Below, one piece after another: positions 11,663 to 51,411 of a stretch of 60,209 bases of DNA; the first letter of the stretch is position 1; each line of letters begins with the position of its first letter. The notes below the pieces were generated by a model. That model was not told where the DNA came from, did no database searches, and worked only from the letters and a program-made list of their open reading frames with translations. The position numbers were made by a program, and so were the translations under genes. This DNA is from Patescibacteria group bacterium (lineage in GTDB: Bacteria; Patescibacteriota; Minisyncoccia; Phycocordibacterales; XYD1-FULL-46-19), in assembly GCA_022705505.1 (NCBI GenBank), contig JAKJEI010000002.1, positions 1 to 60,209 on the forward strand. The letters run 5' to 3'.

Positions 11663-11679
11663 ATTTAAATAATAACCGA

Positions 11680-11937
11680 TTAATGGTAGAAAACAACTCG
11701 CCGCTTCACAAGCTCGCTCAAATAAACTAACAAAATCACTCCGGCGGTAACGGACATCGCCGGCCAAATAGTTTCTGGTTGTTGGCGCAAGACATCAAAC
11801 AAAAAAGCGCCGATCGTTGCTTCGTAAAAATTTGGAAAGCTAAAAATAAAAACCAAAAGCAAAACCAAGTTTAACCACCACGGGAAAAAAAGAGCTGAAA
11901 CCATCAAGATAAAGGCGGCGCCAAATCTAAACAGCAT
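11680..11937 (-). CDS. mreD: Small polytopic membrane protein, MreD-like
   Basis: About 85 aa and very hydrophobic, lying between mreC and mrdA. The call is by position only. Confidence 0.5.
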   Translation of the reverse strand: MLFRFGAAFILMVSALFFPWWLNLVLLLVFIFSFPNFYEATIGAFLFDVLRQQPETIWPAMSVTAGVILLVYLSELVKRRVVFYH

Positions 11938-12721
11938 AAACCTCAACCCACTTAATCTGAAAAATATTTATCGGCGCGTTGAAAAGAATTGTTTGGAAAG
12001 GATCAGCATTGGTTTTTTTTATCACATCCACCAACCCCAACAAGTAACCTCCATACTCAGGCGCGATTACCACGTCGCCCTTGACCACCTCAGCGCCCTT
12101 AGGCAAAGTGATAGAAAAGTTTCCGCCGCCCAAACCAGTGGCTTCCGCCGGCAAATTTTCTTTGCCAATCAAAACCGAAATGGCTTTATTGGTAGAAACT
12201 AGTCCAACTTTCGTGTGGTAATCCCGCACTTCCAAAACTCGGCCCAGTAAAACCTTATCGTTGTAAACCACCAGATCGCCGGGTTTAATCTCAGAGTTTT
12301 TTCGTCCAACATCCAATGTCACAACCCCGCTCGCAATCACGTTTGGGGTCAACAAGACTTTGGCCACAATTGATTTTTTACTTTCCTGATTAGAAAGATC
12401 GAGCAATCTTTTTAATTCACGGTTTTCTTTTTCCAATCCCCGACGATTGACCAAGGCTAATTTTAAATCAAAATTTTCGCGCGCCAGTTTTTCGTTCTCG
12501 CGAAGAAGGTCCTCTTTAGCCCGGAAAAAAGCAAAAAAGTTGAGCCAGCCAGACCCGGCTTCATCAGCCACCTTGCCAAATGGCGAAGCAACGCTGGCCG
12601 CCGCTGGAAAAAACTTTTGCGCCAAAAAATTACCTATAAGTAGCAAGCCCAAAATTACCACTAAAACAATCACCGGTTTTTGCCAATTTCGACTCTTTTT
12701 GCGGTAACTATAAAAAGTCAT
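11927..12721 (-). CDS. mreC: Rod shape-determining protein MreC
   Basis: N-terminal TM helix, coiled coil (ENEKLARENFDLK) and a beta-rich C-terminal domain. ATGA overlap with mreB. Confidence 0.85.
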   Translation of the reverse strand: MTFYSYRKKSRNWQKPVIVLVVILGLLLIGNFLAQKFFPAAASVASPFGKVADEAGSGWLNFFAFFRAKEDLLRENEKLARENFDLKLALVNRRGLEKENRELKRLLDLSNQESKKSIVAKVLLTPNVIASGVVTLDVGRKNSEIKPGDLVVYNDKVLLGRVLEVRDYHTKVGLVSTNKAISVLIGKENLPAEATGLGGGNFSITLPKGAEVVKGDVVIAPEYGGYLLGLVDVIKKTNADPFQTILFNAPINIFQIKWVEVYAV

Positions 12722-13773
12722 CTTGGGGGTAAATCATCTTCATTATCAATAAGAATGTCGCGATGTGATTCAAAGTCGTCCAAAATAACACCAGTACCCC
12801 TTACCACCGCCGTTCCCGGGTCTTCCGCCAAATGGATTGGTATCTCAATCTCTTTTTCCAAGAGCTCGGCCAAGCCTCTCACCTGGGAACCGCCCCCGAC
12901 CAAAATAACCCCCCGACGCATAATATCTGAAACTACTTCCGGCGGGGTAGATTCCAAAACTTCCTTTACCGCGTCCACAAACAAAACAACTGAATTGAAT
13001 ACTGCCTCGCGAATATCAGAGTCGGTCACCGCCACTTCACGTGGTAAACCGGTTACCAGGTCTCGTCCGCGAATCAAAGCTTCACCCGGCACTGGTTGCT
13101 TAAGGACCGCGCCAATGGAAACTTTTACTTCCTCGGCAGTTTTTTCACCAAGCAAAATTTTGAATTCGTCGCGAATATAATTCACAATATCTTGGTTATA
13201 TTTCTCACCGGCGATATGTAAATTTTTGGAACGCACAACGCCACCCAGCGAAATGACAGCAATGTCGGTGGTGCCACCGCCAATATCCACAATCATGTTA
13301 CCAACCGGGTCATAGACCGGAATATTGATGCCAATGGCCGCGGCCATCGGCGATTCCACAATATGGACTTCGCGCGCGCCGGCGTTCATCACCGCGTCTC
13401 GCACTGCCCGCCGTTCCACGTTGGTGATGTCTGAAGGCACACTCACCACCACCCGTGGTCGAAAATATGCCTTCCCAACTGAACTCAGGGCTTTGCGCAA
13501 AAAGCAAGCAATCATTTCCTCACCCACCTCAAAATTTGAAATAACACCATTTTCCAGCGGCTTAATCGCTTGAATGTGCGCCGGGGTGCGACCAATCATT
13601 TCACTGGCATCATCCCCAACCGCCACCACTCGGCCAGTCTTTTGGTTGATCGCCACGATTGATGGTTCCGTCAAAACAATCCCATGACCCTTGATGTACA
13701 TCAAGGTCGTAGACGTGCCAAGGTCTATCCCCACATCAGTTGTCAAATTTTTAAAAAATCTATCGTACCACAT
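12718..13773 (-). CDS. mreB: Rod shape-determining protein MreB (copy 1, in the mreBCD-mrdA operon)
   Basis: Actin-fold motifs GIDLGTSTT, DIGGGTTD and GGGS. Confidence 0.93.
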   Translation of the reverse strand: MWYDRFFKNLTTDVGIDLGTSTTLMYIKGHGIVLTEPSIVAINQKTGRVVAVGDDASEMIGRTPAHIQAIKPLENGVISNFEVGEEMIACFLRKALSSVGKAYFRPRVVVSVPSDITNVERRAVRDAVMNAGAREVHIVESPMAAAIGINIPVYDPVGNMIVDIGGGTTDIAVISLGGVVRSKNLHIAGEKYNQDIVNYIRDEFKILLGEKTAEEVKVSIGAVLKQPVPGEALIRGRDLVTGLPREVAVTDSDIREAVFNSVVLFVDAVKEVLESTPPEVVSDIMRRGVILVGGGSQVRGLAELLEKEIEIPIHLAEDPGTAVVRGTGVILDDFESHRDILIDNEDDLPPR

Positions 13774-13870
13774 CTTGCAATAGGAATTAGAAGTTGAGAA
13801 CTAAAATAAATTATAAGTTTGTTTGTAATTTAACAGAACCTGACTTTTTAATTTTTAATCTAGACTTAAC

Positions 13871-15148
13871 TTACCGAACTTTATTTAGCAATTCCGCTTC
13901 CGATAAGTATTCAATTTCCCCCGTTGCTCGGTCAACTAACTCAAACTTCCCTTTCTTGATCGCTGAATCGCTAATCACCAAACGAAAAGGAATGCCGAGC
14001 AAATCGGCGTCGGCCAACTTTTCACCAGCCGACAAATCGCGGTCATCACACAAAACCTCTTTCCCGCTTGCCGTTAACTCCTCATAGATTTCCAAGGCTG
14101 TCTTGGCGGTCTCCGTCAAAGCCTCGCGGTCACCCGACAATTCAACTTCTTTCCCCAAGATTACCAGATGAATATCAAACGGCGCCACGGCGCGTGGCCA
14201 GACCAAACCTTTATTATCAGATTTGATTTCGGCAATCACCCCCATTATGCGCGCTGGGCCAAGACCGTAACAGCCCATCACGACCGGCCACGACCCTCCT
14301 TTTTCATCTTTAAAGTAAAGTCCAAGGGGCTGAGAAAAGCGAGTCCCTAGTTTAAAAATGTTGCCAACTTCAATGGATTTTTTCTCAGACAGCTCCTCGC
14401 GAGAAAGACCCAATTCGGACAAAGTTTCATCATTCAAAACTTCTTTATTAACCGCCAGCTTTTTTCCCTCTGACAAATAAATCAGATCCTCACCCGCTTC
14501 GCTCAAAGTCTGAAACTCGTGACTATATTTACTAAAGACACCGCCGGACGCAAAAGTGATATAGGTTGAGTCGCCTAAACCAATCCGTTCAAAAATTCTT
14601 TCATAAGCGCCCTTGACCTTGTCATAAAAATTGTCCAGGTCCTCTTCGGAAACATGAAAGGAATAGAGATCTTTCATCAAAAATTCGCGCCCGCGTAAAA
14701 TACCGCTCTTGGCGCGAGTCTCATTGCGAAACTTGGTCTGAATTTGATAAATAGCACGCGGCAAATCTTTATATGAACTAACGTGGTTCTTTAGCAATTC
14801 GGTAATTGCCTCTTCGTGGGTAAAACCAAGACCCAGCTCGCCACCGGTCTGCAGCTCGGTCTTAAACCAAATATCCACCTTGTCGCCGCTCCAACGGTCA
14901 GTCTTTTCATAAAGCAACGGATTCTGCAGAGCGGTCAATTCAAGCTCCACGGCCCCCAAAGCATCCATCTCTTTACGAATGATGTCGTTTATTTTATTCA
15001 GAACCCTCAAACCAAGTGGCAAATAAGAATAAACGCCCGCCATCTCCTTATGGATAAAACCGGCCCGAATCAACAATTTAGCATTTTGGGAAACTTCACC
15101 CTTAGGATCTTCCCGCCTGGTTTTTGAGAATAATTGAGACTGAAACAT
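13871..15148 (-). CDS. proS: Proline--tRNA ligase, short form lacking the INS editing domain
   Basis: Class II core and a C-terminal anticodon-binding domain in only 425 aa. The N-terminus QNAKLLIRAGFI...GVYSYLPLG is typical of ProRS. Confidence 0.85.
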   Translation of the reverse strand: MFQSQLFSKTRREDPKGEVSQNAKLLIRAGFIHKEMAGVYSYLPLGLRVLNKINDIIRKEMDALGAVELELTALQNPLLYEKTDRWSGDKVDIWFKTELQTGGELGLGFTHEEAITELLKNHVSSYKDLPRAIYQIQTKFRNETRAKSGILRGREFLMKDLYSFHVSEEDLDNFYDKVKGAYERIFERIGLGDSTYITFASGGVFSKYSHEFQTLSEAGEDLIYLSEGKKLAVNKEVLNDETLSELGLSREELSEKKSIEVGNIFKLGTRFSQPLGLYFKDEKGGSWPVVMGCYGLGPARIMGVIAEIKSDNKGLVWPRAVAPFDIHLVILGKEVELSGDREALTETAKTALEIYEELTASGKEVLCDDRDLSAGEKLADADLLGIPFRLVISDSAIKKGKFELVDRATGEIEYLSEAELLNKVR

Positions 15149-38744: not shown

Positions 38745-39422
38745 ATGAAAATACTCATCGTCGAAGACGAAGAACGCCTAGCTAAACTTATTAAAAAAGC
38801 TCTCGAAAAAGAAGGCTTCGCCGCTGACTATGTCACGGACGGCGAAGCGGCGGAAACCAGGATAGAAATTTGCCATAAAGATTATGACTTGGTCATTCTG
38901 GACTTGATGCTCCCCAAAAAAGACGGCCTGGAGGTTTGCCGTAGCATCCGGGCAAAGAAAATTAACATCCCAATTCTTGTCTTAACGGCCAAATTTGATG
39001 TAGACGATAAAGTCAAAACCCTTGACGCCGGCGCTGATGATTATTTAGTCAAACCATTCTCCCTGGAAGAACTAGTTTCGCGTATCCGAGCGCTCTTGCG
39101 TCGCCCGCCACAAACCATCCCAACTGTTTTAAAAACCCAAGACCTAACTCTAAATAACGCCACTCGAAAAGTAACGCGCGGCAACAAAGAGATAAAACTA
39201 ACAGTCAAAGAATTCGCCATTTTAGAATATTTGATGCGCAATCCCAACCAAGTCATCAGCCGCAGTCAAATCTTGGACCACTTGTGGGGTTCGGATTTTG
39301 ATTCATTCAGTAATGTGATTGATGTCCATGTCAAAAATTTACGCAAAAAAATCAGCAATGGCAGCCGCCGGAGAATAATAGAAACCATCCGCGGTATCGG
39401 TTATCGCATTTCCACTGAATAG
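38745..39422 (+). CDS. OmpR-family response regulator
   Basis: Receiver domain (ILIVEDE, LVILDLMLP, LTAK) plus a winged-helix output domain (EFAILEYLMRNPNQV, RGIGYR). Confidence 0.92.
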   Translation: MKILIVEDEERLAKLIKKALEKEGFAADYVTDGEAAETRIEICHKDYDLVILDLMLPKKDGLEVCRSIRAKKINIPILVLTAKFDVDDKVKTLDAGADDYLVKPFSLEELVSRIRALLRRPPQTIPTVLKTQDLTLNNATRKVTRGNKEIKLTVKEFAILEYLMRNPNQVISRSQILDHLWGSDFDSFSNVIDVHVKNLRKKISNGSRRRIIETIRGIGYRISTE

Positions 39423-39684: not shown

Positions 39685-40554
39685 CTAAATTTCCTTTATC
39701 TTGTAGCCTTTCATTTCCGTATCCATAAAATCCGTTCTTATCCCCGAGTGGGATTCTTCAGTCAAAGGATTATTTTCTCTTTTATCTACCGCTTCAAGCG
39801 CTTTTTGCCAATCCCCTCTATCAAATAAGTCCAAATAAAAGATTATTAGGACATCTCCGTTTTCTTGGTTAATTGTCTCCAAGCGTAAACCCATCCACTT
39901 GTTCAGAGGCAAGATGTTGGGATTATAAGAACGGTCATATTCTCCGGCTAGAATCTTTTTTTCAGCGAGCACGGAATATTCCCCATCACGCTTTTTTTTA
40001 ATCACTATGTCACCGTCAACTCGCAAACCGGCATAATAAAGATTGTCATCATCCACGTAACGGCTGATGAGCAAAACACCATTGGACTCATTCCGGCTAG
40101 GCGTGTCGCTAACCCAATATTGGTTTACCTTAAAGTAAGTTTCTTGTTGGTGGTCTTGCCACTTCTTCTTAGTTATCAAACGAAATAGATTTTGCGGATG
40201 GTAACCCCCATCGGTATCAAAAGGGTTAGACCCGGCATATTCTCGCCACCAACGAGAGTCAGAGGACAAATCGCCTTGGATGGTAAAGAAGTGGTCTCCA
40301 ACCCAATAGACCATCGCGCCTGAATCAAGCCACCAAAAAGGGTCGGGACTTTCTTCCAGGGAGCCAGTTTCCTCTACCACATAAGCACTCCCCAAAGGGG
40401 CCTCAGGATTATTTTCCATGTAAATTGCCGTTGGCAAAATCCAGTTTGGGTTACCAAGGTTATTAACGCCGAACAAATCCTCGCCATAAACAAAGGCAAG
40501 CGCTAGCAATGAAATAAACAAAAGGCCGAACAAAAAATAAAATTTTTTTATCAT
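39685..40554 (-). CDS. Secreted protein with an unassigned jelly-roll-like domain (paralog of the N-terminal half of 46993-48702)
   Basis: Signal peptide. Blocks shared with the 569-aa protein are G[YF]HPQN[LI]F, NGV.LISR..DDN.YYA, DG...IKKK and NP..LP.N...GL. Confidence 0.65.
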   Translation of the reverse strand: MIKKFYFLFGLLFISLLALAFVYGEDLFGVNNLGNPNWILPTAIYMENNPEAPLGSAYVVEETGSLEESPDPFWWLDSGAMVYWVGDHFFTIQGDLSSDSRWWREYAGSNPFDTDGGYHPQNLFRLITKKKWQDHQQETYFKVNQYWVSDTPSRNESNGVLLISRYVDDDNLYYAGLRVDGDIVIKKKRDGEYSVLAEKKILAGEYDRSYNPNILPLNKWMGLRLETINQENGDVLIIFYLDLFDRGDWQKALEAVDKRENNPLTEESHSGIRTDFMDTEMKGYKIKEI

Positions 40555-42203
40555 AGCATTTCCGCTAGTCTAATGGGCTTATAATTTTCATTTTGAATTG
40601 CGGGTTCAGAAGTAAAATGTTTTATTTTAATCAAACTGTTACCGAGAGTTTTATCCCACCCCTTAACCGCAACACCGCCGGACAGATAAGCGTTATCATT
40701 ATCAACCACGCTAACCACCGACTCCCCACCAACAAGACAGCCAATCTCGTCCTGCCAAAAAGAAGCCCCGACCGTTAAATTGTTTTTGGACAAAACATTC
40801 TCGTTTTTTGCCTCCTTCAACAAAACTTTTTGACCATCTATTTGCTTTTCTACGCGAACAGAATTATCACTGTAAGTACAACTGTAATAATTAGATTCAT
40901 CTCTAAAACGGCCGATTAAAGAAAAGTGACTGCCTTTAAGCCAATCAATTGAAAGAGTTAGGCGGTAATCGGTCCAGTCGTATGTCCCGTCAAGCAAAGC
41001 AAAGGAACCTGTCGTCTGTTCGGAAGAACGTATTTCCAACTGACCACTTGACAGCCTCATCTCACCCCATGATCGACGCCAACCTTGATTCAGAGAAAAA
41101 TCATCCTCAAAATAAATATTTTTACTTTGACCATTTTCCAATAGACTGGTCAGGAATTCACCGTTCCAAGCCGGATAAGGTTCCATTCTTTTCAACATGC
41201 TCGTCTGTTCATCTCGATGGTTTTGACTAAAACCCCTATCGTGCGGCCAAGTTTGATAAAAAGCCAAATCATAAATATTGCTCACTGCTTCATTAATAAT
41301 CTGCCGGCTAGGCGGGAAGTTAACCGTCTGTTGTCCAAAATCTGAAAAAGGGTAAGAAAAAGCTGTAACTTTTATGTCTAGAGCATCTTCAATCTGTTTC
41401 TTTGAACCAGCAAGTTCCCTTACCACCCTGGCGACATATGCTTCTTCGTCTTCCAAACGATTTTCTTGAATCAACCACTGGCGATTACTTAAAAAATTTC
41501 TCTTTTCACCGTAGGAATTAATCGTCACAAAACCGCCGTCTTCCTGAATAGCATGAGAGCCAATTTCCCAACGGCCGGATTCAACCATTTTTTTCAGCTC
41601 TTCGCGATTCAGATAATATTGGCTGTCTTTGTCTTGGTCATCGTTCAAAGAAGCTTGAGTGGAAATAAACATAACCGCGTTGAAGCCCAGATCTTTTAAG
41701 ATGGGGTCTGTCGGGTAATAGCTGTCCTTACGACCGTCATCAAAGGTTAATAAAAAAGATTTTTGCGGCAAATCGAGGTTGCCTGTCAAAAATCCCTTCA
41801 TTTGGCTCAGCGTTATCGTTTGGTAACCAGCTTTCTTTAATTCAAACAAGTGATCACGAAAACCTTCCGGCGTTATATCAAATCGGTTGGCCGTCGGCGA
41901 GAGCCCGTGGTAAACCAAGACCGGTACCGACAGAGTCAAGATGGTTTCTTTTTTCTCAGCCTCCGGTTTAGCGTAAATCTCAGGCCCGAACAAATGATTA
42001 ACAGTGGCCAAAAACCGAAACCTAAATTCTCGCGCGCGGTAAATGACAACATCTCTGTAAGTTCGCAAATAATACCACCTGAAGTTTTCCAAAAATAAGC
42101 GATTCTTTTCATAGTAGTATAATCCTCCAGCCAAAATGATAGCCACCAGACCAAGTAAAGCTATTTTTTTTATCACTGTTTTGGTGGAAATGAAGCTAAC
42201 CAT
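40551..42203 (-). CDS. Membrane-anchored polysaccharide deacetylase (NodB/CE4) with a C-terminal lectin-like domain
   Basis: N-terminal TM helix, VLVYHGL...LTFDDGRKDSYY, and FSYPF. The C-terminal ~180 aa look like a beta-sandwich. Confidence 0.8.
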   Translation of the reverse strand: MVSFISTKTVIKKIALLGLVAIILAGGLYYYEKNRLFLENFRWYYLRTYRDVVIYRAREFRFRFLATVNHLFGPEIYAKPEAEKKETILTLSVPVLVYHGLSPTANRFDITPEGFRDHLFELKKAGYQTITLSQMKGFLTGNLDLPQKSFLLTFDDGRKDSYYPTDPILKDLGFNAVMFISTQASLNDDQDKDSQYYLNREELKKMVESGRWEIGSHAIQEDGGFVTINSYGEKRNFLSNRQWLIQENRLEDEEAYVARVVRELAGSKKQIEDALDIKVTAFSYPFSDFGQQTVNFPPSRQIINEAVSNIYDLAFYQTWPHDRGFSQNHRDEQTSMLKRMEPYPAWNGEFLTSLLENGQSKNIYFEDDFSLNQGWRRSWGEMRLSSGQLEIRSSEQTTGSFALLDGTYDWTDYRLTLSIDWLKGSHFSLIGRFRDESNYYSCTYSDNSVRVEKQIDGQKVLLKEAKNENVLSKNNLTVGASFWQDEIGCLVGGESVVSVVDNDNAYLSGGVAVKGWDKTLGNSLIKIKHFTSEPAIQNENYKPIRLAEML

Positions 42204-42218
42204 AATTAGCGATTCGTT

Positions 42219-43514
42219 TTAACGAGTCCCCCAGCGGGAATCTCTAATATTTATAATTGCCCAAGGCAGTTGCCAAATCAAAACCAAGGTGTAAAAAACC
42301 GCAAACAAGACCCCATAAAACCACTTGCGATCCCGAGTGTGGATATAATAGTACAAACCATAAATCAAAGACATTAACATCAATCCCAACAAATAATAGC
42401 AAGGAACCAAGCCAGTCATATACGGATACCAAACAAGGGCTCGCAAAACAATAATCGGCGCGGCTAAAGGCAAAATGAAGCCAAGATAAAAAGACAAACT
42501 CATAATTATATTGCGACGCCAAATGAAAGTGCTGGCAATTAAACTCTCCCGCACCCACGACTTTTTCCAACGCAACTGTTGTCGCATAAATTGTCTAAAG
42601 TTGTCTGGAACCATTGTGTGACAAATCGCCTCTTCAGCGAACAAAGTTTTATAACCGCGACGCAACAAAAAGTTGGTTAAGCTGCGGTCATCACCGTAAG
42701 TGCAGGCGATACCTAAAAATCGCTGCTGTCCCCAATCAGCCAAAACTTCCATGACCGCCTGGCGTCGGTAAGCCGAACAACAACCACTGCAGCAAGTCAC
42801 GCTATTAAACATCGCCTCAGCTGCCTTGTAGGCCTTGAAGGCAATGTAGTAACGAACCGACTGCATTTTGGTCAAATAATTTTTGTTTTCATTAGTGACA
42901 TAAGCCTGGCCGGCCACTGCCACCACTTGAGGGTCAGAAAAGTATTTTACTAAATTCCTGGCAGTGCTTTGATTAACAAAACTGTCAGAGTCAACAAAAA
43001 TCACCAAGTCTTTTTTTGACATCTTGACACACTCAGCCATCCCCTCTCTTTTGCCCCTGTTTTCTTTCCAATCAATGACTTTGACCACCGCGCCGTGGCG
43101 AGCGGCGATTTCTTTAGCAACCAACATTTCTTGCAAAGTATTGTCAGTAGACCCATCATTAACAGCAATGATGTCAAACTTGTTTTTGGGATAGTCACTT
43201 TTGGCCATTTTGAGAATTGTCTCTCGGATATTGTCTTCTTCGTTTTTAGCCGGCACGCCAAAAGAGATGGTTGGCAGATAATCAACTCTCATTTTTTTGT
43301 TGTCCACTTCGTAAAAATAAGCAATCACAAAACGACTCAACAAATAAAGAGAAACTCCTAAACTGTAAAGACCAAAAAGAATATTATTATCTATTTCTTT
43401 TATGGTTATCAATTTGATAACCAACACGAGGTAAACCAGAAAATAGAAAATAATCCAGAGGTTGATATTTCTAAGAGAATAAAGGTTATAGGCTTTTTTG
43501 AGTTTTGCAATCAT
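42219..43514 (-). CDS. Membrane-integrated family-2 glycosyltransferase, HasA/NodC-like processive synthase
   Basis: N-terminal TM helices, then AVNDGSTD, VDSDS, GDDRSLTN and QQLRWKKSWVRES (QxxRW). There are 4-5 C-terminal TM helices and a C-terminal RWGTR. Confidence 0.8.
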   Translation of the reverse strand: MIAKLKKAYNLYSLRNINLWIIFYFLVYLVLVIKLITIKEIDNNILFGLYSLGVSLYLLSRFVIAYFYEVDNKKMRVDYLPTISFGVPAKNEEDNIRETILKMAKSDYPKNKFDIIAVNDGSTDNTLQEMLVAKEIAARHGAVVKVIDWKENRGKREGMAECVKMSKKDLVIFVDSDSFVNQSTARNLVKYFSDPQVVAVAGQAYVTNENKNYLTKMQSVRYYIAFKAYKAAEAMFNSVTCCSGCCSAYRRQAVMEVLADWGQQRFLGIACTYGDDRSLTNFLLRRGYKTLFAEEAICHTMVPDNFRQFMRQQLRWKKSWVRESLIASTFIWRRNIIMSLSFYLGFILPLAAPIIVLRALVWYPYMTGLVPCYYLLGLMLMSLIYGLYYYIHTRDRKWFYGVLFAVFYTLVLIWQLPWAIINIRDSRWGTR

Positions 43515-43517
43515 AAT

Positions 43518-44819
43518 TTATCGTCCAATGCCCAAATAAACCAGGTCGCTGTTATTAAAACTTTCCTTGGGCAAAAAATTCCGCCCATCAATCACAACAG
43601 AAACGCCGTGACTTTTTAAAAATTCTGGCGTAAGACCGGAAAAAGCTCTATGACCGGTAACAATCATGACTGCTTGCGACCCAGCCAAGGACTTGCCTAG
43701 TGAAGGGCTGGTAGACCGATTCAAAACATGAGGGTCAAAAACAGAAACCTTAATCCCCTGTTTTTTCAAGTTTTCAATTATTTTAAACGCGGGGCTTTCG
43801 CGGCAATCATCAACGTTCGGTTTGTAGGCTAGGCCCAGCACCGTTACCCTGGCGCCGACTACTTCAATTTTTTTCTTGCGTAACCCCTCAATTAAAAGTT
43901 TGGTAGTAAATTCCGGCATATAATTATTTATCTTTCTCGCCAACTTCAAGAAGTTATGATTAAAACCATTTTCCTTGGCATATTTAATCAAGTAATATGG
44001 GTCAACCGGAATACAGTGACCGCCCACGCCGCAACCAGGAAGATGCCTCATAAAAGCGAAGGGTTTGGTCGCGGCGCCGTTTAAAACGTTTACGACATCA
44101 ATCCCCAACTTGGAAAAAGACATCGCCAACTCGTTTACGAAAGCAATGTTAATATCGCGGAAAGAGTTCTCCACCACTTTTACCGCTTCTGCCTCCTTGA
44201 GCGAGTCCATCTGTTTAACTTCCGCCTTCAAGATGGAACGATAAAAATCCGTGGCCCTGGCCAAACCAACTTCTTCCAAGCTCCCAATCACACGCGGGAT
44301 ATTCTCAACATCCCAAAACGGATCGCCGGGATTAATTCTTTCCGGACAATGGGCCAAATAAAAATCCTTGCCGCCAATCAGTCCTGAATTTTTCTGCAAA
44401 AACGGCAAGACAACGCCTTCGCTGACACCCGGGTTGACGGTAGATTCCAAAACTACCAACTGGCCTCTTTGCAAAATTAAACCAAGCGCTTTACTAACCT
44501 CCTCTAACGGCACCAAATCAGGTAGGTGCTTTTTATTGACCGGCGTTGGCACGCAAATCACAATAACTGAAGCGGTTTTTAGGGCAGCAAAATCAGTGGT
44601 TGCCTTAAAACCGCTTTCTTTAATAAGCTTCTCCACCTTGGCATCTTCAAAAGGTGGAACTTTCTTTTTTAGTTTATCCACCTTCTCTTGGTTGATATCC
44701 ACCCCAATTACTTCATAGCCCTTCTTGTCTGCCAACAAAGCCAACGGCAATCCGACATAGCCCAAACCAACCACGCCTATCGTCTTGCCTCTTTTATTCT
44801 TTTTGAGATTTTTGCCCAT
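43518..44819 (-). CDS. Nucleotide-sugar 6-dehydrogenase (UDP-Glc/UDP-HexNAc dehydrogenase family)
   Basis: Rossmann motif GVVGLGYVGLPLA and the catalytic Cys motif GGHCIPVDPYY. Confidence 0.88.
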   Translation of the reverse strand: MGKNLKKNKRGKTIGVVGLGYVGLPLALLADKKGYEVIGVDINQEKVDKLKKKVPPFEDAKVEKLIKESGFKATTDFAALKTASVIVICVPTPVNKKHLPDLVPLEEVSKALGLILQRGQLVVLESTVNPGVSEGVVLPFLQKNSGLIGGKDFYLAHCPERINPGDPFWDVENIPRVIGSLEEVGLARATDFYRSILKAEVKQMDSLKEAEAVKVVENSFRDINIAFVNELAMSFSKLGIDVVNVLNGAATKPFAFMRHLPGCGVGGHCIPVDPYYLIKYAKENGFNHNFLKLARKINNYMPEFTTKLLIEGLRKKKIEVVGARVTVLGLAYKPNVDDCRESPAFKIIENLKKQGIKVSVFDPHVLNRSTSPSLGKSLAGSQAVMIVTGHRAFSGLTPEFLKSHGVSVVIDGRNFLPKESFNNSDLVYLGIGR

Positions 44820-44916
44820 AAAAGATTTTTAAAAATAAATTTATAAGAGTAACTGCCTCAAACTTAGCAATAAGCAATGAGTTAAAAGTGAATCCTCAAA
44901 AGCCGCGTTCACCCAC

Positions 44917-44945
44917 TTGTCATTTTTTACAGTTAGGCTTAAATT
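44917..44945 (+). promoter_or_regulatory. Candidate sigma70-type promoter for the plus arm of the polysaccharide locus
   Basis: TTGTCA - 17 nt - TAAATT, about 40 nt upstream of the ATG at 44987, inside the divergent intergenic region. Confidence 0.35.
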
Positions 44946-44986
44946 CAAATTCAAACTTTAAAAAATTTAAAATAAAAAGAAATATA

Positions 44987-46666
44987 ATGGTCACCCAAAA
45001 AAATTTCTCTCTTATCTTAATCGTCGCGATTGGAGTTTTTTTTGTTTCCTTGCCCAAAGAAATTTCAGCTGAAATTTCTTTATTTTCTTTAGGACCAAAC
45101 TTGATAAACAATAGCGACCTTGAATCGGCCAGCCCTAGCGGCGACCCAACTGACTGGGCTCGCGGTCGTTGGGGCAACAATATTGCCACTTTTGAATATC
45201 CAGCAACCGGGCACAACGGCTCGCGCGGCAACAAGGTAACCTTAAACGAACGTCTTTCTGGCGACGCCAAGTGGTACTTCAAAGATGTAGCGGTTTCCAC
45301 CAACAAAACTTATGAGTTTTCGGACTATTACCAAGCCAATGCCTCAAGCCATGTCACGGCCAGATATTTATTAAATGACGGAAGTTATAAATATATTGAT
45401 TTAATCACTGACGTGCCCGTCGGCACGGCTGAAACAAAAGTCAACTTTTCTCCACCAACAAACGCGGTCTCGCTGACCATCTTCCACTTGATAAATCAAA
45501 ACGGTTACTTGATTACTGACAATTACAGCTTGCGCGAAATAATTGAGACTCCAACTGATAATCTGATTGCCAACTCCTCCCTGGAAATGGAGACCAATGG
45601 ACAGCCGAGCCATTGGTTCCGTGGTCGTTGGGGCAACAATATCGCTAATTTTATCTATCCGATAAATGGCAACTTCACCGCCAAGGCGGCCCGGGTAGAA
45701 TTAGGGAATCGCCTTTCTGGCGACGCCAAGTGGTACTTTGAAGACGTAACTGTAAGTCCGGGAGGCTTTTATTCTTTTGAAGACGACTATCGGGCAAATA
45801 CGGATTCCTACCTCACGGCTCGTTATAAAATGGATAACGGTCAATATGTTTATTCCGACCTGGCTATTTTACCCCCCAGCCAAAGTTGGAAACACTTCTT
45901 CACCTCTTTTAAGATTCCAGGCGAAGTATCAACTTTGACAATATTTCACCTAATAAAAAATAACGGCTGGTTAGAAACCGATAATTTTGATTTTCAAGCA
46001 ATCCGTCCAGACCGATTTAACGAAGGCCTTGTTACCTTGGCTTTTGATGACGGCCCAATTTCTGTCTATGAAAACGCCTTACCTATTTTGCGCGCCACCG
46101 GGCATAAAACAACACAATATATAGTAACTGGTTACACCTCTTTCCCGGGATACATGAACCCATCTCAAGTTTTTGAAATGTTTTTAGAAGGACATGAAAT
46201 CGGTTCTCACTCCCTTAATCACGCCGACTTAACCGCTCTTGCGCCGACTGAAATAAATTATCAATTGTCAGAATCAAAAAAAGTGCTGGGGGGTTATGGT
46301 TTCAACGTCACCAGTTTTGCCTATCCTTTTGGCTACAACAACAGCTTAATTAAGCAACTCCTGGCGCAAAACGGATATGGAAGCGGCCGCGCCACCATTG
46401 AAGGCGTAAATGTTAGGGGGGGCGACCCTTACGCTTTAAAAGTTATGTCCATCTTAAATGACACCTCCTTTCTAGACATCAAAAATGAAATAGACCAAGC
46501 CTTAATCGATAAAAGTTGGCTGATTCTTCTTTTCCACCAAGTCAATCACGAAGGAGACAGATACAGCACAACACCGGAAACTTTATCCGCGATCACCAAC
46601 TATCTAAACCAAAAACAAGCTAAGGTGGTCACCGTGAGCGAAGGTACCAATCTAATGAATAATTAA
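44987..46666 (+). CDS. Secreted protein: two tandem CBM-like modules plus a NodB polysaccharide deacetylase domain
   Basis: Signal peptide after the internal ATG (MVTQKNFSLILIVAIGVFFV). It carries duplicated ~154-aa modules, then LAFDDGP, GHEIGSHSLNH and FAYPFG. Confidence 0.8.
   Translation: MVTQKNFSLILIVAIGVFFVSLPKEISAEISLFSLGPNLINNSDLESASPSGDPTDWARGRWGNNIATFEYPATGHNGSRGNKVTLNERLSGDAKWYFKDVAVSTNKTYEFSDYYQANASSHVTARYLLNDGSYKYIDLITDVPVGTAETKVNFSPPTNAVSLTIFHLINQNGYLITDNYSLREIIETPTDNLIANSSLEMETNGQPSHWFRGRWGNNIANFIYPINGNFTAKAARVELGNRLSGDAKWYFEDVTVSPGGFYSFEDDYRANTDSYLTARYKMDNGQYVYSDLAILPPSQSWKHFFTSFKIPGEVSTLTIFHLIKNNGWLETDNFDFQAIRPDRFNEGLVTLAFDDGPISVYENALPILRATGHKTTQYIVTGYTSFPGYMNPSQVFEMFLEGHEIGSHSLNHADLTALAPTEINYQLSESKKVLGGYGFNVTSFAYPFGYNNSLIKQLLAQNGYGSGRATIEGVNVRGGDPYALKVMSILNDTSFLDIKNEIDQALIDKSWLILLFHQVNHEGDRYSTTPETLSAITNYLNQKQAKVVTVSEGTNLMNN
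45098..46000 (+). repeat. Internal tandem duplication of a ~462-bp module
   Basis: Two identical 26-mers CTTTCTGGCGACGCCAAGTGGTACTT at 45254 and 45724. The 20-mer GGTCGTTGGGGCAACAATAT also occurs in both copies. Protein blocks W.RGRWGNNIA.F.YP and RLSGDAKWYF are repeated. Confidence 0.85.
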
Positions 46667-46969
46667 AAACTGAACTTTAGGTCCTCATTCAAAGTAGCTT
46701 GCAAACACAAGCCACTTCTTTCTTAATGAAACCGGAGTGGCTTTTGCTCTTCCATTACCCAATGAAGTCAACTATACTTTTGCCTGAAGCCGTTTGTTTT
46801 TTCACGCTTTCTTAATCTTGAAAAATTGTCTTCAAACTTTTTTGCCCAAAAAACAACAACTACGGGAAAAACTAATCATCTCATCTTAATTCTCGTTACC
46901 AAGGGGTAAATTATTTTGACAAAGATTGACCTTAATCACAAACAGCTCATGGTCGTTAATAATTAACTT

Positions 46970-46986
46970 TTCCGGAAATTCCGGAA
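46970..46986. promoter_or_regulatory. Tandem palindromes TTCCGGAA-A-TTCCGGAA just upstream of a start codon
   Basis: Two copies of the self-complementary octamer, 9 nt apart centre to centre, ending 6 nt before the ATG at 46993. Confidence 0.3.
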
Positions 46987-46992
46987 CTGCAA

Positions 46993-48702
46993 ATGTCTAG
47001 TTATCTATATCATTATGTGGCACAACGCTCCATTAATGGGAACTTAAGAAAAAGTGGTTTTATCTTTCTGTTTGTCTGTTTGTTGTTTGCCTTAACTTTT
47101 GCGGTCAGCCAAACCTCGGCCGAAACCACTTCCCTTTTATCAACCAGCCGAACCCTCACTGAGACTTCTTCGCCCTCTGGTAGCCCCGACGCCAACCTCT
47201 GGTTAAAATCCGGCGGCAAAATTATAATCGCCAATGGAGAAGCGCTGAGCATTCAAGGTTCATTGCCGACTAATGACCCCCTGCGTTTGGCTTACGCGAC
47301 ACGCGCCGGCGTTGAAAGCGATAATGGTTTTCACCCGCAAAACATTTTCCAACTTAATACCAAAAAAAGTTGGCTAAACTCCAGCGCTGAAGTTGATGTT
47401 AAAATTACCAACCTAAACTTGTTCAATCTGGCCAATGTCCACCCTTGGAATGGTGTTTCCTTGATTTCTCGCTTCACCAATGACGACAACTACTATTACG
47501 CTTCTTGGCGAACTGACGGATACATGATTATCAAGAAAAAAGTTGGTGGCGTACATCACACTTTGAGTCAAAAGAAAGTTTATGAAGGAACTTATGACGC
47601 CACTGATAACCCAAGCCTTCTCCCCTTCAATCAAACGGTTGGCCTAAAGTTTGACACCAACACAAATTCTGACGGTTCCGTAAACCTAAGGTTCTACCTT
47701 GATAAAAACAACAGCGGAGATTGGACCTTGATCACAGAACACACGGATAAATCCCCGCTAAAATCCAGTGGCCAGTCCGGTTTACTAGCTAGTTATCTGG
47801 ACGCGGAATACCGCAATTACACAATCTCGGACCTTGACGGTCGTTCCGACTCCTCGCCCAACACAGCCGAAACGCCACCGGCGCCAATTCAAAACGATAA
47901 TTCAGTGGACCGTTTTGGAGTTAAAAAATTATATCCGACTTCAGGCAAAGAATGGATGTCCAAGTGGGATAACGGTCAGGACCGAAGTTTCTCTGGCATA
48001 GACCCGCAAGATCCATGGTTTGACGCCAATCATGGTGATGCCAGTTACAAGGTTGACGGCAACGGCCAACTTAAAGTGACCGGTTCGGTCCCCCGTATGT
48101 ATATTCATGACCCCAGCCACATCGACAGTTGGGGTAACGTAGAAATGACCGTCTACGCCATGCGCAAGTCAGATAGCAACACACCCTGGGGCGGAATCGT
48201 CGGCATCGCCCGTTCCAATCATGGCACCACCGGCAAAGAAACCGTAGATCTCTGTGATACTCGTGGTCTTGGCGCTCGTATGCGCTATGACGGCAAAGTA
48301 GACTTTGAGAAAGAAACTAGCCACCCCAACGCCACCTCCGTCGCGAGCAAAAATTTGTTTTCCGGCGGCTTGCCATACAACAAATGGATTGGCTATAAGT
48401 ATGTGGTTTATGACTTGCCAGACGGGAATGTTAAAACAGAACTTTGGCTTGATGAAACTGACGGGCAGAACGGCGGGGACTGGAAAAAAACCAACGAATT
48501 CATTGACACCGGTCGAAACTTCGGAGTCGGCGCCAAAGCTTGTAAACCGAACATTGACCCAGCCTTGAGATTGACGAGCAGCCAGAATCGTCCAGGATCC
48601 GAATCGGGCCGACCAAACGTCACTGTTTACTGGCGCAGCGATAACGTCGGCACTGACGGCTTAATTTACAAGAAAATGAGCGTCAGGGAAATCTCCGCCT
48701 AA
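46993..48702 (+). CDS. Secreted two-domain protein (N-terminal domain paralogous to 39685-40554; C-terminal beta-rich domain, possible glycan-binding or lyase-like)
   Basis: N-terminal TM/signal segment, the shared blocks listed for 39685-40554, a Pro/Ser linker and a ~270-aa C-terminal domain of unknown family. Confidence 0.65.
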
Positions 48703-48707: not shown

Positions 48708-48728
48708 AAAGCTCCAACTTGGGGCTTT
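48708..48728. terminator. Hairpin between convergent genes
   Basis: AAAGCTCC-aactt-GGGGCTTT (one G.U pair), followed by a T-rich tract. Confidence 0.45.
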
Positions 48729-48735: not shown

Positions 48736-49737
48736 TTAGGAAGTTTCTGTCGGTCTAATGTTTTCTTTTGGCAAAAAGATGTGGAAAGAGGTCCCCTTTT
48801 CTGGCGATGACTCAAACCAGAGACGACCGCCAGAACGGTCAATAATAATCTTGGAGATATAAAAACCAAGCCCAGTATCGTTCAAGTCTTCTCGGTTTGG
48901 ATTATCGGTCTGATACCTCTTGCTGAAAACCTTACCTTGTTCAGATACAGGAATGGCCGCGCCGTTGTTGTAAAAACAAATAAAAACCCCCAGCTTATCA
49001 CCACAGGTTATTATTTTGACCTTGCCCCTTTTTTCCAAAGATGCATTTTTAACTGAATAGGCAATCAAGTTGCCGAGAGCAATGTTGATTAAATCAAAAT
49101 CCGCCTTAACCGTGGAAAATTTTTTATCATAGTCAGTTTCCACCTTAAGTTTCGCATTTTTGTTATCGGCCAATCTGTCAGCCAAGAGATTATCTAGAAT
49201 TTCCACCAAATCTATTAATTTTGGTTTTAAAACAAAAGTGTTAAGCTCAATTTTAGAAATTATAGAAAAAACATTGAGCATCTCCGTCATTCTCTTAAGC
49301 GACAGGAAAATTTCTTTCACTGATTTTTTTTGTTGTCTCGTAAGGTCGCCGTGATAACCAGCCAATAAAATTTCAATATTAAGCAAAGATATGGTTAAGG
49401 GAGTTCTTAATTGATGAGAAACCAGGGACAAAAAATCGGCTTTGGTTTCATCTGATTCTCGCCAAAACTTTTCTTCAGAGTGAAGTTGGAACTGAATTTT
49501 CTCAAGTTGGCGTCCCAGCCGAGCGGTATAATTTTGAAAAGTTCCCATTAATTCGGCTATTTCGTTTTTAGACTGTCTGTATTCTTCTTCTTTAAACTCC
49601 CCCCATTTGATTTTCTTTAACTTTTCCGACCATTTGTCCCATTCCGTTGGTTTTTGCTTGGTCATAAAAACCAAGGCTTCGTTGATTTTAGATTTTAAGC
49701 CCAACTTGTCCTTGTGCTTGCATACTTTATGTTGCAT
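48736..49737 (-). CDS. Soluble sensor histidine kinase
   Basis: H box LVSHQLRTPL, N box GNLIAYSVKN and G box DTGLGFYISKII. No TM segment. An AAAGGAA motif lies upstream of the ATG. Confidence 0.88.
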   Translation of the reverse strand: MQHKVCKHKDKLGLKSKINEALVFMTKQKPTEWDKWSEKLKKIKWGEFKEEEYRQSKNEIAELMGTFQNYTARLGRQLEKIQFQLHSEEKFWRESDETKADFLSLVSHQLRTPLTISLLNIEILLAGYHGDLTRQQKKSVKEIFLSLKRMTEMLNVFSIISKIELNTFVLKPKLIDLVEILDNLLADRLADNKNAKLKVETDYDKKFSTVKADFDLINIALGNLIAYSVKNASLEKRGKVKIITCGDKLGVFICFYNNGAAIPVSEQGKVFSKRYQTDNPNREDLNDTGLGFYISKIIIDRSGGRLWFESSPEKGTSFHIFLPKENIRPTETS

Positions 49738-49872: not shown

Positions 49873-49902
49873 TTGACAAAAAGGTGTATTATGTATTAGA
49901 TA
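49873..49902 (+). promoter_or_regulatory. Candidate promoter of the second kinase operon
   Basis: Perfect TTGACA at 49873-49878, with TATTAG/TAGATA candidates 15-18 nt downstream. It overlaps the GTG start of the ORF track, which argues for the ATG at 49917. Confidence 0.4.
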
Positions 49903-49916
49903 TCTTGGCAAGATTT

Positions 49917-51053
49917 ATGAAAACTTCTTCAAAAAGAAAAATTCTAACAAACTCACCGGGCTATCCCAGGCAAGTTAAAAACCGAGGGGCTAAAATTACA
50001 CAAGCGCGCTTTTTGGAGAAAACCACAAGCGCGCTTGTTGATTGGCAAATAAATCTGATAAAAGATTTTATCAACTTTCTGGACCAACCGGCTATCGCTC
50101 TAGATTCTTTTTATAAAATTGTGCACTTTAACAACGCCTTTTTAGATACCTACGGCAAGCATGGCAAAAAAAGAGATCAACTTTCTTTGTTGGATTATCT
50201 GAATAAAAAAGACCTTGAATCGTTAAAAAAATGTTTAGATGATATTGAAGAAGACGAACTAGAGAGTTGCCAACAGAATATTCAAATAAAAGACAAGACA
50301 ATAAATATCCGCCTTAAAAATTTTAAAATTAACAATGAAGCAAATTTCATTCTTTTAATTTGCACCGAGATCAAGAAAGGTCCCCATGCCCAGAGCAACA
50401 TCCTAGGTCTGGTTAGCCATGAACTCAAGACTCCCTTGACCGCGATCAAGGCCTTTGGGCAACTAACAAATAGCACTTTAAAGCACTCAAACAAAAGAGC
50501 GGCTGATTACTTGGGGAAAATAGACGAACAGATCAACCGGATGGTTGAGTTGGTTGATGATTTGTTCGACGTTTCTAAAATCCATCTTGGGAAATTCACT
50601 ATTACAAAAAACCCTCATTCGTTAGACAATCTTATAAAAGAAACACTGGAAGAAATAAAACTTTCCCGGCTTGGTAAACATAAGATAATAGTCAGAGGTT
50701 CTATCAAGGAAAAAATAAACATTGATAAGAACAGAATTAAACAAGTTCTTTTGAATATTATCAGTAATGCCATCAAGTATTCCCCCAAGGCCAACAAAGT
50801 GCTTATCCTTTTAAAAAGAACCCCCCAAACCGCTCAAATCAAAATTAAAGATTATGGCCGAGGAATAGACCCTCAAAATTTAAAAAATATTTTTGACCAA
50901 TTCCGTCAAAATAAGGAGAGTGGCGGTCTAGGTTTGGGTCTTTATATCTCGCAAAAAATTATTAAAGAACACGATGGTGAAATAAATGTTACCAGCAAAA
51001 AAGGATACGGCTCAGTTTTTACCATAATTTTACCCTTAAAAAAAGTTAAATAA
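49917..51053 (+). CDS. Soluble PAS-like sensor histidine kinase
   Basis: PAS-like N-terminal region, H box LVSHELKTPL, N box NIISNAIKYS and G box GGLGLGLYISQKII. No TM segment. Confidence 0.88.
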   Translation: MKTSSKRKILTNSPGYPRQVKNRGAKITQARFLEKTTSALVDWQINLIKDFINFLDQPAIALDSFYKIVHFNNAFLDTYGKHGKKRDQLSLLDYLNKKDLESLKKCLDDIEEDELESCQQNIQIKDKTINIRLKNFKINNEANFILLICTEIKKGPHAQSNILGLVSHELKTPLTAIKAFGQLTNSTLKHSNKRAADYLGKIDEQINRMVELVDDLFDVSKIHLGKFTITKNPHSLDNLIKETLEEIKLSRLGKHKIIVRGSIKEKINIDKNRIKQVLLNIISNAIKYSPKANKVLILLKRTPQTAQIKIKDYGRGIDPQNLKNIFDQFRQNKESGGLGLGLYISQKIIKEHDGEINVTSKKGYGSVFTIILPLKKVK

Positions 51054-51054: not shown

Positions 51055-51411
51055 ATGAAGGTCTTTGTTTGCGAAGATGAAAAAGAGATTGCCGAAATAA
51101 TAAAAACTATTTTGGAAAAACAAAACCATGAGGTTAAACTTGATTTCGGCGGAAACAAAATTCTTGAATCCATAATGAACTTTACTCCCAATTTGATAAT
51201 TTTGGATTACCGCTTGCCAAACCTTGACGGCGAAAAACTAACCAAGAAGTTAAAGGCCAATGAAAAAACAAAAAAAATCCCCGTGGTCATAATCTCGGCT
51301 TCCAATTATTTGGAAAAAGTGGCCGCTGATTCAATGGCTGATGATTATTTATCCAAACCTTTTGATATCCAAAACTTACTGGCTATCGTCACTAAATACG
51401 ATAGCCAGTAA
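51055..51411 (+). CDS. Stand-alone receiver (CheY-like) response regulator
   Basis: VFVCEDE, LIILDYRLPNLDG and ISAS...YLSKPF. The start lies 1 nt after the kinase stop. Confidence 0.9.
   Translation: MKVFVCEDEKEIAEIIKTILEKQNHEVKLDFGGNKILESIMNFTPNLIILDYRLPNLDGEKLTKKLKANEKTKKIPVVIISASNYLEKVAADSMADDYLSKPFDIQNLLAIVTKYDSQ

Follow-up and report, generated by a model that had tools for sequence, protein, structure and literature searches.

A candidate synthase-dependent polysaccharide locus in a Patescibacteria group bacterium, and its glycosyltransferase, deacetylase and jelly-roll core in bacteria and archaea

Bacteria of the candidate phyla radiation (CPR) and archaea of the DPANN group have tiny genomes, are thought to live attached to host cells, and possess surfaces about which little is known. 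What, then, might such a cell be building with a cluster of six genes that encode a membrane glycosyltransferase of family GT2, a nucleotide-sugar dehydrogenase, two polysaccharide deacetylases of carbohydrate esterase family 4 (CE4) and two exported proteins of no annotated family? The cluster lies in a stretch of 60,209 nucleotides from a Patescibacteria group bacterium (contig JAKJEI010000002.1 of assembly GCA_022705505.1), the whole of which is termed ‘the window’ below, and an earlier note, made from its sequence, had described it as an exopolysaccharide locus. The identities and family placements of the genes, the export signals and predicted folds of their products, and the conservation of the neighborhood across bacteria and archaea point to a synthase-dependent polymer of N-acetylhexosamine (HexNAc), acidic where the dehydrogenase is present, which would be de-N-acetylated outside the cell and bound there by jelly-roll proteins; a probability of about 0.6 is attached to this reading. 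By analogy with characterized systems, the locus seems to combine the logic of the has operon (a synthase with a dehydrogenase) with that of poly-N-acetylglucosamine (PNAG) production (a synthase with a PgaB-type extracellular deacetylase).

All six open reading frames (ORFs) are found at the positions and on the strands that the earlier note had assigned to them (Table 1), and they are not chance ORFs, because the homologs of each number in the hundreds to thousands. Its description of the minus-strand arm is accurate as well: the dehydrogenase and GT2 genes are separated by a 3-nt gap (43515-43517), the GT2 and first deacetylase genes by a 15-nt gap (42204-42218), and the stop of that deacetylase gene overlaps the start of the gene for X289 (a protein of 289 residues) in an ATGA sequence (40551-40554). 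The spacer between the two arms has the claimed length, and the quoted motifs are found in the translations (DGS, VDSDS, GDDRSLTN, QQLRWKKSWVRES and a terminal RWGTR in the GT2; GGHCIPVDPYY in the dehydrogenase). In hydropathy profiles, a single signal or anchor segment stands at the N-terminus of each of four proteins out of the six, so that processing should take place outside the cytoplasm and the product has to pass through the membrane. The assignment of the host to the CPR also stands, in that the same 90% protein clusters contain members named Candidatus Paceibacterota.

Table 1. Positions of the cluster and of its adjoining regulator gene in the window
Feature	Coordinates	Strand	Description and basis
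OmpR-type response regulator	38745..39422	+	Response_reg and Trans_reg_C domains; convergent with the X289 gene
X289	39685..40554	-	289 aa; exported or membrane-tethered concanavalin-A-like jelly roll of an unannotated family (AlphaFold2, Foldseek)
Anchored CE4 deacetylase	40551..42203	-	550 aa; membrane-anchored, single-pass, apparently PgaB/IcaB-type; one N-terminal transmembrane segment and Polysacc_deac_1
GT2, ‘type A’	42219..43514	-	431 aa; membrane protein of the hyaluronan synthase/NodC/chitin synthase group, presumed polymerase-exporter (Pfam, NCBIfam and PDB matches, motifs)
Nucleotide-sugar 6-dehydrogenase	43518..44819	-	433 aa; NAD-dependent, UDP-HexNAc clade; three UDPG_MGDP_dh domains
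Divergent intergenic region	44820..44986	.	167 nt, AT-rich; between the dehydrogenase and CBM-CE4 genes
Secreted CBM-CE4	44987..46666	+	559 aa; tandem pair of CBM_4_9-like modules ahead of a canonical NodB-type CE4 (signal-like N-terminus, Pfam)
Y569	46993..48702	+	569 aa; secreted, two-domain; N-terminal half an X289 paralog, C-terminal half a second jelly roll
Y569 C-terminal domain	47860..48699	+	about 265 aa; jelly roll of no Pfam family

The nature of the product depends above all on the GT2. Its Pfam matches are Glyco_tranf_2_3, Glycos_transf_2 and Chitin_synth_2, the last with 87.1 bits against a gathering cut-off of 27 bits and over partial stretches only of the 527-position model, which is a sign of domain-level relatedness and no proof of chitin synthesis. 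The best NCBIfam models are NodC (TIGR04242; 203 bits against a cut-off of 550, over residues 70-431) and PgaC/IcaA (TIGR03937; 126.6 bits against 422), and the nearest solved structures are those of Xenopus hyaluronan synthase (HAS) 1 (E 2e-35) and Chlorella-virus HAS (CvHAS; 2.5e-31), with BcsA matching at 1e-8. The alignment with HAS spans residues 150-431, from the membrane region through to the terminal WGTR, and the protein has its hydrophobic segments at both ends, two at the N-terminus and about four towards the C-terminus (residues 13-42, 45-64 and approximately 336-423). Among its motifs (DGS, DSDS, GDDRSLT, QQLRW and WGTR), GDDRxLT and the terminal WGTR are common to this enzyme and HasA, whereas NodC has GEDRHLT and WLAR. 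Against plasmid-derived references, identity is 32% to Bacillus anthracis HasA, 28% to NodC and lowest, at 24%, to Escherichia coli PgaC, so the alignments that the earlier note had proposed bear out its ‘HasA/NodC-like’ label. Judged by sequence, the enzyme belongs to the hyaluronan-synthase/NodC/chitin-synthase group and appears to be an ortholog of no named member. Homologs at 61-70% identity number more than 100 in CPR bacteria and DPANN archaea. A cysteine-rich segment, TCCSGCCS (residues 240-247), is invariant across these type-A homologs, while HAS, the more divergent ‘type B’ GT2s and a Paenibacillus enzyme read SGPL[SA] there.

The dehydrogenase had been assigned to the clade that acts on UDP-HexNAc rather than to that of UDP-glucose dehydrogenase (Ugd), and several comparisons now agree on that assignment. 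In a small neighbor-joining tree the CPR and DPANN enzymes are sister to WbpA plus TviB, and identities are 37-40% to WbpA/TviB, 33% to WecC and 21-27% to Ugd/HasB. The best matches in the PDB are 4r16, a Pyrococcus dehydrogenase that forms UDP-N-acetylmannosaminuronic acid (4e-83), Cap5O (4e-69) and then a Methanosarcina HexNAc-uronic acid dehydrogenase, with UDP-glucose dehydrogenase structures at 1e-40 or weaker; the GGHCIPVDP motif with its catalytic cysteine is present. The general NCBIfam model NDP-sugDHase scores 407 bits, and the best sub-models, those for archaeal UDP-N-acetylmannosamine (UDP-ManNAc) dehydrogenase and TviB, both fall under their cut-offs. Since the protein lies below every equivalog cut-off, the choice of substrate among the N-acetylglucosamine (GlcNAc), ManNAc and N-acetylgalactosamine (GalNAc) forms is not fixed by its sequence. 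Because no homolog of a WecB-type UDP-GlcNAc 2-epimerase was found in the window or in loci L001-L025 of the comparison described below, UDP-GlcNAc is the most economical of these, and the enzyme most likely converts it to UDP-GlcNAcA (UDP-linked N-acetylglucosaminuronic acid), the ManNAc and GalNAc forms being the alternatives. At a Colwellbacteria locus (L009, 8734-10004) the dehydrogenase 5' of the GT2 is split into ORFs of 336 and 86 residues, reflecting either a frameshift (and thus a pseudogene) or an assembly error. Two other loci with an identical GT2 (L007 and L008) differ just 5' of the dehydrogenase, at about 6300-8500, where one has a fusion of an NTP_transferase with a short-chain dehydrogenase and the other has unrecognized ORFs and a 109-residue Phage_capsid fragment, a difference that hints at a mobile or variable region. 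A dehydrogenase match on a Streptomyces plasmid (H31) was rejected as a relative of the system, since it belongs to a TviB/TviC/GT4-type cluster and not to one that joins GT2, CE4 and X289.

The two deacetylases had both been described as NodB-type, and both are indeed CE4 enzymes; only the secreted one is canonical, the anchored one being apparently of PgaB/IcaB type with permuted motifs and, in the window, with one metal-binding histidine lost. In the anchored enzyme Polysacc_deac_1 covers residues 145-294, a PgaB model matches residues 95-295 with 89 bits against a cut-off of 322, and the nearest PDB entries are BpsB, PgaB and IcaB. Its motifs run in the order VYH, TFDDG and then GRWEIGSH at the place of the H-x4-H site, a site kept in 38 of 45 distinct homologs. 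The beta-rich C-terminal domain, which is probably a jelly roll, is weakly related to the X289 profile (hhalign 60%, E 9e-5). In the secreted enzyme, Pfam places CBM_4_9 at residues 38-157 and Polysacc_deac_1 at 345-464, NCBIfam describes it as HfsH-like, the PDB matches are 6dq3 and CE4 enzymes active on chitin, peptidoglycan and xylan, and the motifs FDD, HSLNH and LFH are present in its translation. In L095, the closest relative of the locus, a homolog at 44% identity is divergently placed in the same way, and matches to its carbohydrate-binding modules (CBMs), at 35-42% identity and 2.6-3 kb from the GT2, occur in just 3 of 80 metagenomic loci.

The two remaining proteins had been called glycan-binding paralogs. 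Paralogs they are: the N-terminal half of Y569 (the protein of 569 residues) is 34% identical to X289 (E 2e-49), its C-terminal domain is a remote homolog of X289 (hhalign 97%), and both have predicted folds of lectin or CBM type, from which glycan binding may be deduced. Pfam and NCBIfam searches gave no match for X289, even with E values up to 1 over 44 members of the family, and none for Y569, which has a signal- or anchor-like N-terminus; a sequence search of the PDB with Y569 returned nothing meaningful. The AlphaFold2 model of X289 (predicted local distance difference test, pLDDT, 90) consists of an N-terminal helix (residues 3-27), a disordered linker and a beta-sandwich, for which the top Foldseek neighbors are CBM66 and L-type lectins, with DUF1080, GH16 and PL7/14/20 also present. 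A profile search of 1.84 billion proteins recovered 773 cluster representatives of the X289 family. Most are stand-alone proteins of 270-350 residues, some carry the domain in tandem, and some are fusions, whose partners include a heparinase II/III lyase with CE4, CE4 with PKD, GH5, and GH6 with PG_binding_1; in being appended to such varied glycan-active modules, the domain behaves as modules for carbohydrate binding or wall targeting typically do. One member (P0214, 45% identity) is annotated in Methylocaldum szegediense, a gammaproteobacterial methanotroph that has been cultivated and whose genome is complete. For the C-terminal domain of Y569 (AlphaFold2 pLDDT 93, with a fold resembling L-type lectins), 991 homologs were recovered, of which the best 120 are 63-78% identical to it; they occur in Patescibacteria, Elusimicrobia, Deltaproteobacteria and DPANN archaea and carry varied N-terminal partners (discoidin, Laminin_G_3, Big_7, CARDB, dockerin); a Foldseek comparison with viral structures gave generic jelly rolls only.

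How much of this arrangement is conserved was judged from loci gathered by exact-protein look-ups, tblastn and a profile-based metagenome scan, the last of which gave 80 metagenomic loci, 74 of them distinct; an earlier scan of genome collections with a single GT2 had returned 4 loci only, its patterns being too specific. A deacetylase-like gene lies within 2.5 kb downstream of the GT2 in 52 of 55 informative loci (in five as DUF2334), X289 lies within 8 kb in 25 of 30, and a dehydrogenase stands directly upstream on the same strand in 25 of 49, so that the robust core consists of GT2, deacetylase and X289. The idea that all six genes form a conserved unit is thus not borne out, and of the expected co-conservation it is the three-gene core that is kept across CPR bacteria and DPANN archaea, the Y569 gene not having been seen at other type-A loci. 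Several Patescibacteria repeat the order dehydrogenase-GT2-CE4-X289, often with overlapping stops and starts, and DPANN archaea show the order X289-(dehydrogenase)-GT2-DUF2334, on contigs that are taken as archaeal because the neighboring genes encode L31e, S19e, PolB and eEF1A-type factors. X289 stands beside the GT2 in both groups at 38-50% identity, and the archaeal copies are 62-74% (GT2) and 44-46% (X289) identical to the bacterial ones; in a neighbor-joining tree of 65 GT2s, archaeal-type loci nest at no fewer than three places among bacterial ones. The closest relative (GT2 70% identical) is syntenic with the window, a synteny that takes in the response regulator and the divergent CBM-CE4 as well, and has no dehydrogenase. 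The system, although its host here belongs to the CPR, is not specific to that group: DPANN archaea have its core, and further afield the dehydrogenase, GT2 and deacetylase genes are grouped on a plasmid of Paenibacillus and on a contig of high GC content in the IMG/VR database.

The Paenibacillus version, on plasmid NZ_CP045296 of P. cellulositrophicus KACC 16577 (L017), runs polysaccharide deacetylase-dehydrogenase-GT2-polysaccharide deacetylase-GH18. Its GT2 is about 41% identical to the enzyme of the window and its dehydrogenase 42%; the intact dehydrogenase ORF of 414 residues lies at 5953-7197, flanked by the annotated genes for deacetylase and GT2, and has no entry in the PLSDB gene table. 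The plasmid locus shares the order of the deacetylase, dehydrogenase and synthase genes with the window, and no closer version was found in a cultivated organism; unlike the window, it has an N-terminal GT2 extension of about 190 residues, no X289 homolog and a GH18 gene at its end, and it is uncharacterized. The IMG/VR contig (UViG_3300019888_000005; L029, 4589-8876), which is classed as viral, keeps the same order with a dehydrogenase at 36%, a GT2 at 43% and a CE4 at 28% identity; to guess by its composition alone, it may be a piece of a high-GC bacterial genome (possibly actinobacterial) that carries a prophage.

Independent support for a uronic-acid component, which the earlier note had also proposed, comes from a related cassette (L028) in which a dehydrogenase (60% identical to that of the window) is followed by a type-B GT2 and then by a fusion protein of 1372 residues (10001-14119) whose gene overlaps the GT2 stop. 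In the fusion, a lyase of heparinase II/III type is joined to a CE4 domain and to an X289 domain (48% identity). Lyases of the heparinase II/III family act by beta-elimination at uronic acids, and the fusion therefore implies that CE4 and X289 share one substrate and that, at any rate in loci with the dehydrogenase, uronic acid is part of it. Among the 80 metagenomic loci, queries with the heparinase and with the Y569 C-terminal domain turned up no additional linked copy. On a Woesearchaeota contig (L027), a dehydrogenase/type-B GT2/CE4 group is followed by a small helix-turn-helix gene and, about 0.45 kb downstream, by a gene for a discoidin protein with the Y569 C-terminal domain, which is a second, independent tie of that domain to dehydrogenase-GT2-CE4 cassettes; another homolog of the domain (L026) is unlinked to such a cassette. 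Within a few kilobases 3' of the lyase fusion are genes for a Wzz/GNVR plus ParA-type ATPase protein, DUF4012, a sortase, Polysacc_synt_2, a flippase and a GT4. About 4 kb 3' of the Woesearchaeota group, at 13328-15145, is a GlmS-type glutamine-fructose-6-phosphate aminotransferase, possibly a source of precursors for UDP-GlcNAc.

Taken together, these relationships suggest a scheme in which the GT2 would polymerize UDP-HexNAc at the cytoplasmic face and thread the chain through its own membrane domain, as its homology to hyaluronan and chitin synthases, with which it shares the motifs of processive enzymes (DxD, GDDR, QxxRW and WGTR), leads one to expect, while the dehydrogenase would oxidize a UDP-HexNAc (UDP-GlcNAc being the most parsimonious choice) to its uronic form. 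The resulting product would be an acidic, chitin- or hyaluronan-like HexNAc/HexNAc-uronic acid polymer, its sugar composition, linkage and chain length, like the processivity of the synthase, being presumed from those relatives. Partial de-N-acetylation would take place outside the cell by the anchored PgaB-like CE4 and, in this lineage, by the secreted CBM-CE4. X289, tethered or secreted by way of its N-terminal helix, may bind the polymer in the manner of a CBM or wall-binding module and so retain or organize it at the surface, and the same domain could serve as an address tag for other exported carriers such as Y569; a role in host attachment would be one conceivable use of such a surface.

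Several observations weigh against the scheme of an acidic, externally deacetylated polymer. The dehydrogenase does not adjoin the GT2 in 24 of the 49 informative loci, nor in the closest relative, and loci with and without it interleave in the tree of 65 GT2s; being missing from about half of the loci in this pattern, it leaves open a backbone that may not need a uronic sugar, and it is either an accessory gene, common and mobile, or is encoded at another place in those genomes, 8-kb flanks having been examined. The lyase fusion, for its part, stands at the locus of a divergent GT2 (31% identity). A residue-level test for uronic-donor specificity was also rejected: in CvHAS the carboxylate of glucuronic acid (GlcA) is contacted by Arg341 of QxxRW and by Lys177 (PMC12987647), and these positions (the QxxRW arginine and the GK lysine) are conserved in all GT2s compared, PgaC included, so that the contacts are generic and no residue separates HexNAc from uronic donors. 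The membrane conduit is assumed from sequence homology to the membrane helices of HAS. NodC, of the same size and with the same motifs, makes short oligomers only. The anchored CE4 of the window reads HAIQED at residues ~213-222, where the second metal-binding histidine is missing, and for that reason the secreted CBM-CE4 may carry the activity and may, in this lineage, compensate for the loss. Finally, about 30 positions of X289 are invariant, many of them charged or aromatic, and PL7, PL14 and PL20 lyases and GH16 enzymes share its fold, all of which would suit a catalytic role.

That last possibility concerns the jelly-roll component alone: X289, and perhaps the C-terminal domain of Y569 (in which about 80 positions are invariant), could be a new enzyme, a lyase or a hydrolase, by which the polymer is trimmed or released, much as the synthase-dependent systems for alginate, cellulose and PNAG have a dedicated glycanase (AlgL, BcsZ and the C-terminal domain of PgaB, respectively). 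The top structural matches are to non-catalytic CBM66 and L-type lectins, with lyases ranked 34th or lower at a template-modeling score of about 0.35; no recognized catalytic motif was identified in the domain, and its attachment to several unrelated catalytic modules is behavior expected of a CBM, so that an enzymatic X289 is a distinct possibility that the evidence does not favor. As for the polymer itself, a plain chitin-like poly-GlcNAc, made chitosan-like by the CE4s, with a dehydrogenase that is optional or serves another glycan, would account for the many loci from which the dehydrogenase is absent. It would also fit the presence of Chitin_synth_2 and NodC among the best family matches of the GT2, the GH18 chitinase-family gene that ends the Paenibacillus locus, and the fusion of X289 to GH5 and GH6, families best known on beta-1,4 glycans. 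Against it speak the tight coupling of the dehydrogenase, where present, to the GT2 (a 3-nt gap here, overlapping or nearly abutting genes elsewhere), a coupling that spans bacteria, archaea, a Firmicute plasmid and a high-GC contig, as well as the fusion of a uronate-type lyase to CE4 and X289 and the conservation of a dehydrogenase/chitin-synthase-like/deacetylase trio in fungi and algal viruses (PMC4059230); on balance, a plain chitin or chitosan is considered unlikely.

Much smaller probabilities attach to the two named systems that the GT2 most resembles. With the class I hasA-hasB-hasC operon (hasACB on B. anthracis pXO1), the window shares a single membrane GT2 with DxD, GDDRxLT, QxxRW and WGTR motifs and with N- and C-terminal membrane segments, an adjoining 6-dehydrogenase that would supply an acidic donor, and the lack of a separate exporter. 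Many homologs are labeled ‘hyaluronan synthase’ by the Joint Genome Institute, and the best PDB matches are HAS. Nevertheless, a true hyaluronan synthase with a GlcNAc-GlcA product is very improbable: the partner dehydrogenase is much closer to WbpA/TviB than to Ugd/HasB, no hasC/galU-like gene adjoins it, the resemblance of the GT2 to bacterial HasA is limited (see above), and nothing in the pXO1 operon corresponds to the extracellular deacetylases or the lectin-like proteins that the window adds. A short chito-oligosaccharide signal of the NodC/NodB kind, rather than a polymer, is hardly more credible. In its favor are the NodC equivalog as best NCBIfam match, a GT2 of similar size, motifs and alignable C-terminus, and a deacetylase adjoining the synthase as in nodB-nodC. 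The score is far under the NodC cut-off, however, the GT2 has GDDR and WGTR where NodC has GEDR and WLAR, nodA-like acyltransferase and nodIJ-like export genes are absent from the locus, and CBM-like partners and a lyase fusion suit a polymer better. NodB, moreover, is a soluble cytoplasmic enzyme (of about 220 residues), whereas the deacetylases and jelly rolls of the window are exported or anchored with their domains outside; with four of the six proteins exported, the product presumably leaves the cell, which disfavors an intracellular oligomer of the NodC type. The PgaCD/PgaB and IcaAD/IcaB systems resemble the locus in the succession of a GT2 and a PgaB/IcaB-like CE4 that would de-N-acetylate the polymer outside the membrane, the anchored CE4 being most similar to BpsB, PgaB and IcaB; they differ in the low identity and score of the GT2 against PgaC, in the absence from the window of PgaD/IcaD, a PgaA porin and a GH153 domain, and in the presence there of a dehydrogenase. 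Membership of the locus in any of these three systems fails, for HasA on the clade of the dehydrogenase and for NodC and PgaC on scores far under their cut-offs.

The statement that this gene combination had not been described holds for prokaryotes and not beyond them. The literature search found no description of the system in CPR bacteria, DPANN archaea or other prokaryotes, only papers on fungal and viral clusters, and no paper describing the X289 family or the C-terminal domain of Y569. The nearest precedent is an uncharacterized cluster of fungi and algal viruses, in which a UDP-GlcNAc dehydrogenase (UNGD), a chitin-synthase-like GT2 (CHS8, of the ‘CV/ESV class’) and a polysaccharide deacetylase are grouped in fungi and phycodnaviruses; its product is not identified in the literature searched (PMC4059230, PMC5122149, PMC7053769). 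The version in Trichoderma is induced on host contact (PMC7053769), and a survey of 2016 had found no archaeal chitin synthase (PMC5122149). Compared by published description, this cluster shares with the window and many of its relatives, in which the three genes are contiguous, the co-location of dehydrogenase, GT2 and CE4; unlike them it is eukaryotic or viral, and an X289-type partner is not reported there. GT2s on IMG/VR contigs of giant-virus size are only 23-29% identical to that of the window.

What would follow, if the favored reading of a HexNAc-based, partly acidic polymer is right, is a compact module of three to four genes, shared at 60-70% protein identity across both domains, that offers a testable entry to the surfaces of CPR and DPANN cells and ties them to an unexplained dehydrogenase/chitin-synthase-like/deacetylase cluster of fungi and algal viruses. 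Two unannotated protein families, X289 and the C-terminal domain of Y569, gain a context, and the Paenibacillus plasmid locus provides a cultivable proxy that could allow the polymer to be identified. That polymer may be a new one: we know of no synthase-made HexNAc-uronic acid polymer, and none was found in the literature search, so a HexNAc-uronic acid chain from a synthase of the hyaluronan or chitin type would be a possible addition. The prospect of such a chain, the sharing between domains at about 65% identity and the constancy of an unannotated jelly-roll partner are the surprising features of the system. More speculatively, and with considerable doubt, GT2, deacetylase and X289 might constitute an unrecognized surface-glycan module that has been exchanged repeatedly between CPR bacteria and DPANN archaea and builds an acidic, partly de-N-acetylated, chitin-like coat (GlcNAc/GlcNAcA/glucosamine) on ultra-small episymbionts, with X289 and the Y569 C-terminal domain as two new dedicated binding or glycan-active families; if so, the coat would be an attachment or protection structure common to both episymbiotic radiations.

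The expression of the cluster from ‘one divergent promoter’ is a claim of which the spacer itself is real, while a consensus scan of it found weak plus-strand sites only, at 44917-44973. Because the overall counts from the promoter and terminator scans are near those expected from shuffled sequence, such sites are not taken as evidence, and a single divergent promoter is not demonstrated. The divergent arrangement of CBM-CE4 and GT2 genes recurs in the closest relative, there without a dehydrogenase. Between the two plus-arm genes lie 326 nt, in which one site resembles a terminator (46697-46712) and another a promoter (46935-46963), so the Y569 gene is probably its own transcription unit, and a terminator-like hairpin lies 3' of it at 48708-48728. 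Scans for tRNA genes and Rfam families found just one tRNA-Glu, distant from the locus. The OmpR-type response regulator beside X289 also adjoins the X289 homolog in the closest relative (L095/L096) and not at more distant loci; it is a possible regulator of the cluster, the association being weak. Two-component genes in fact flank the six genes on both sides, with this regulator to the left and, to the right, a histidine kinase (48736-49737) and a kinase/receiver pair (49884-51053 and 51055-51411).

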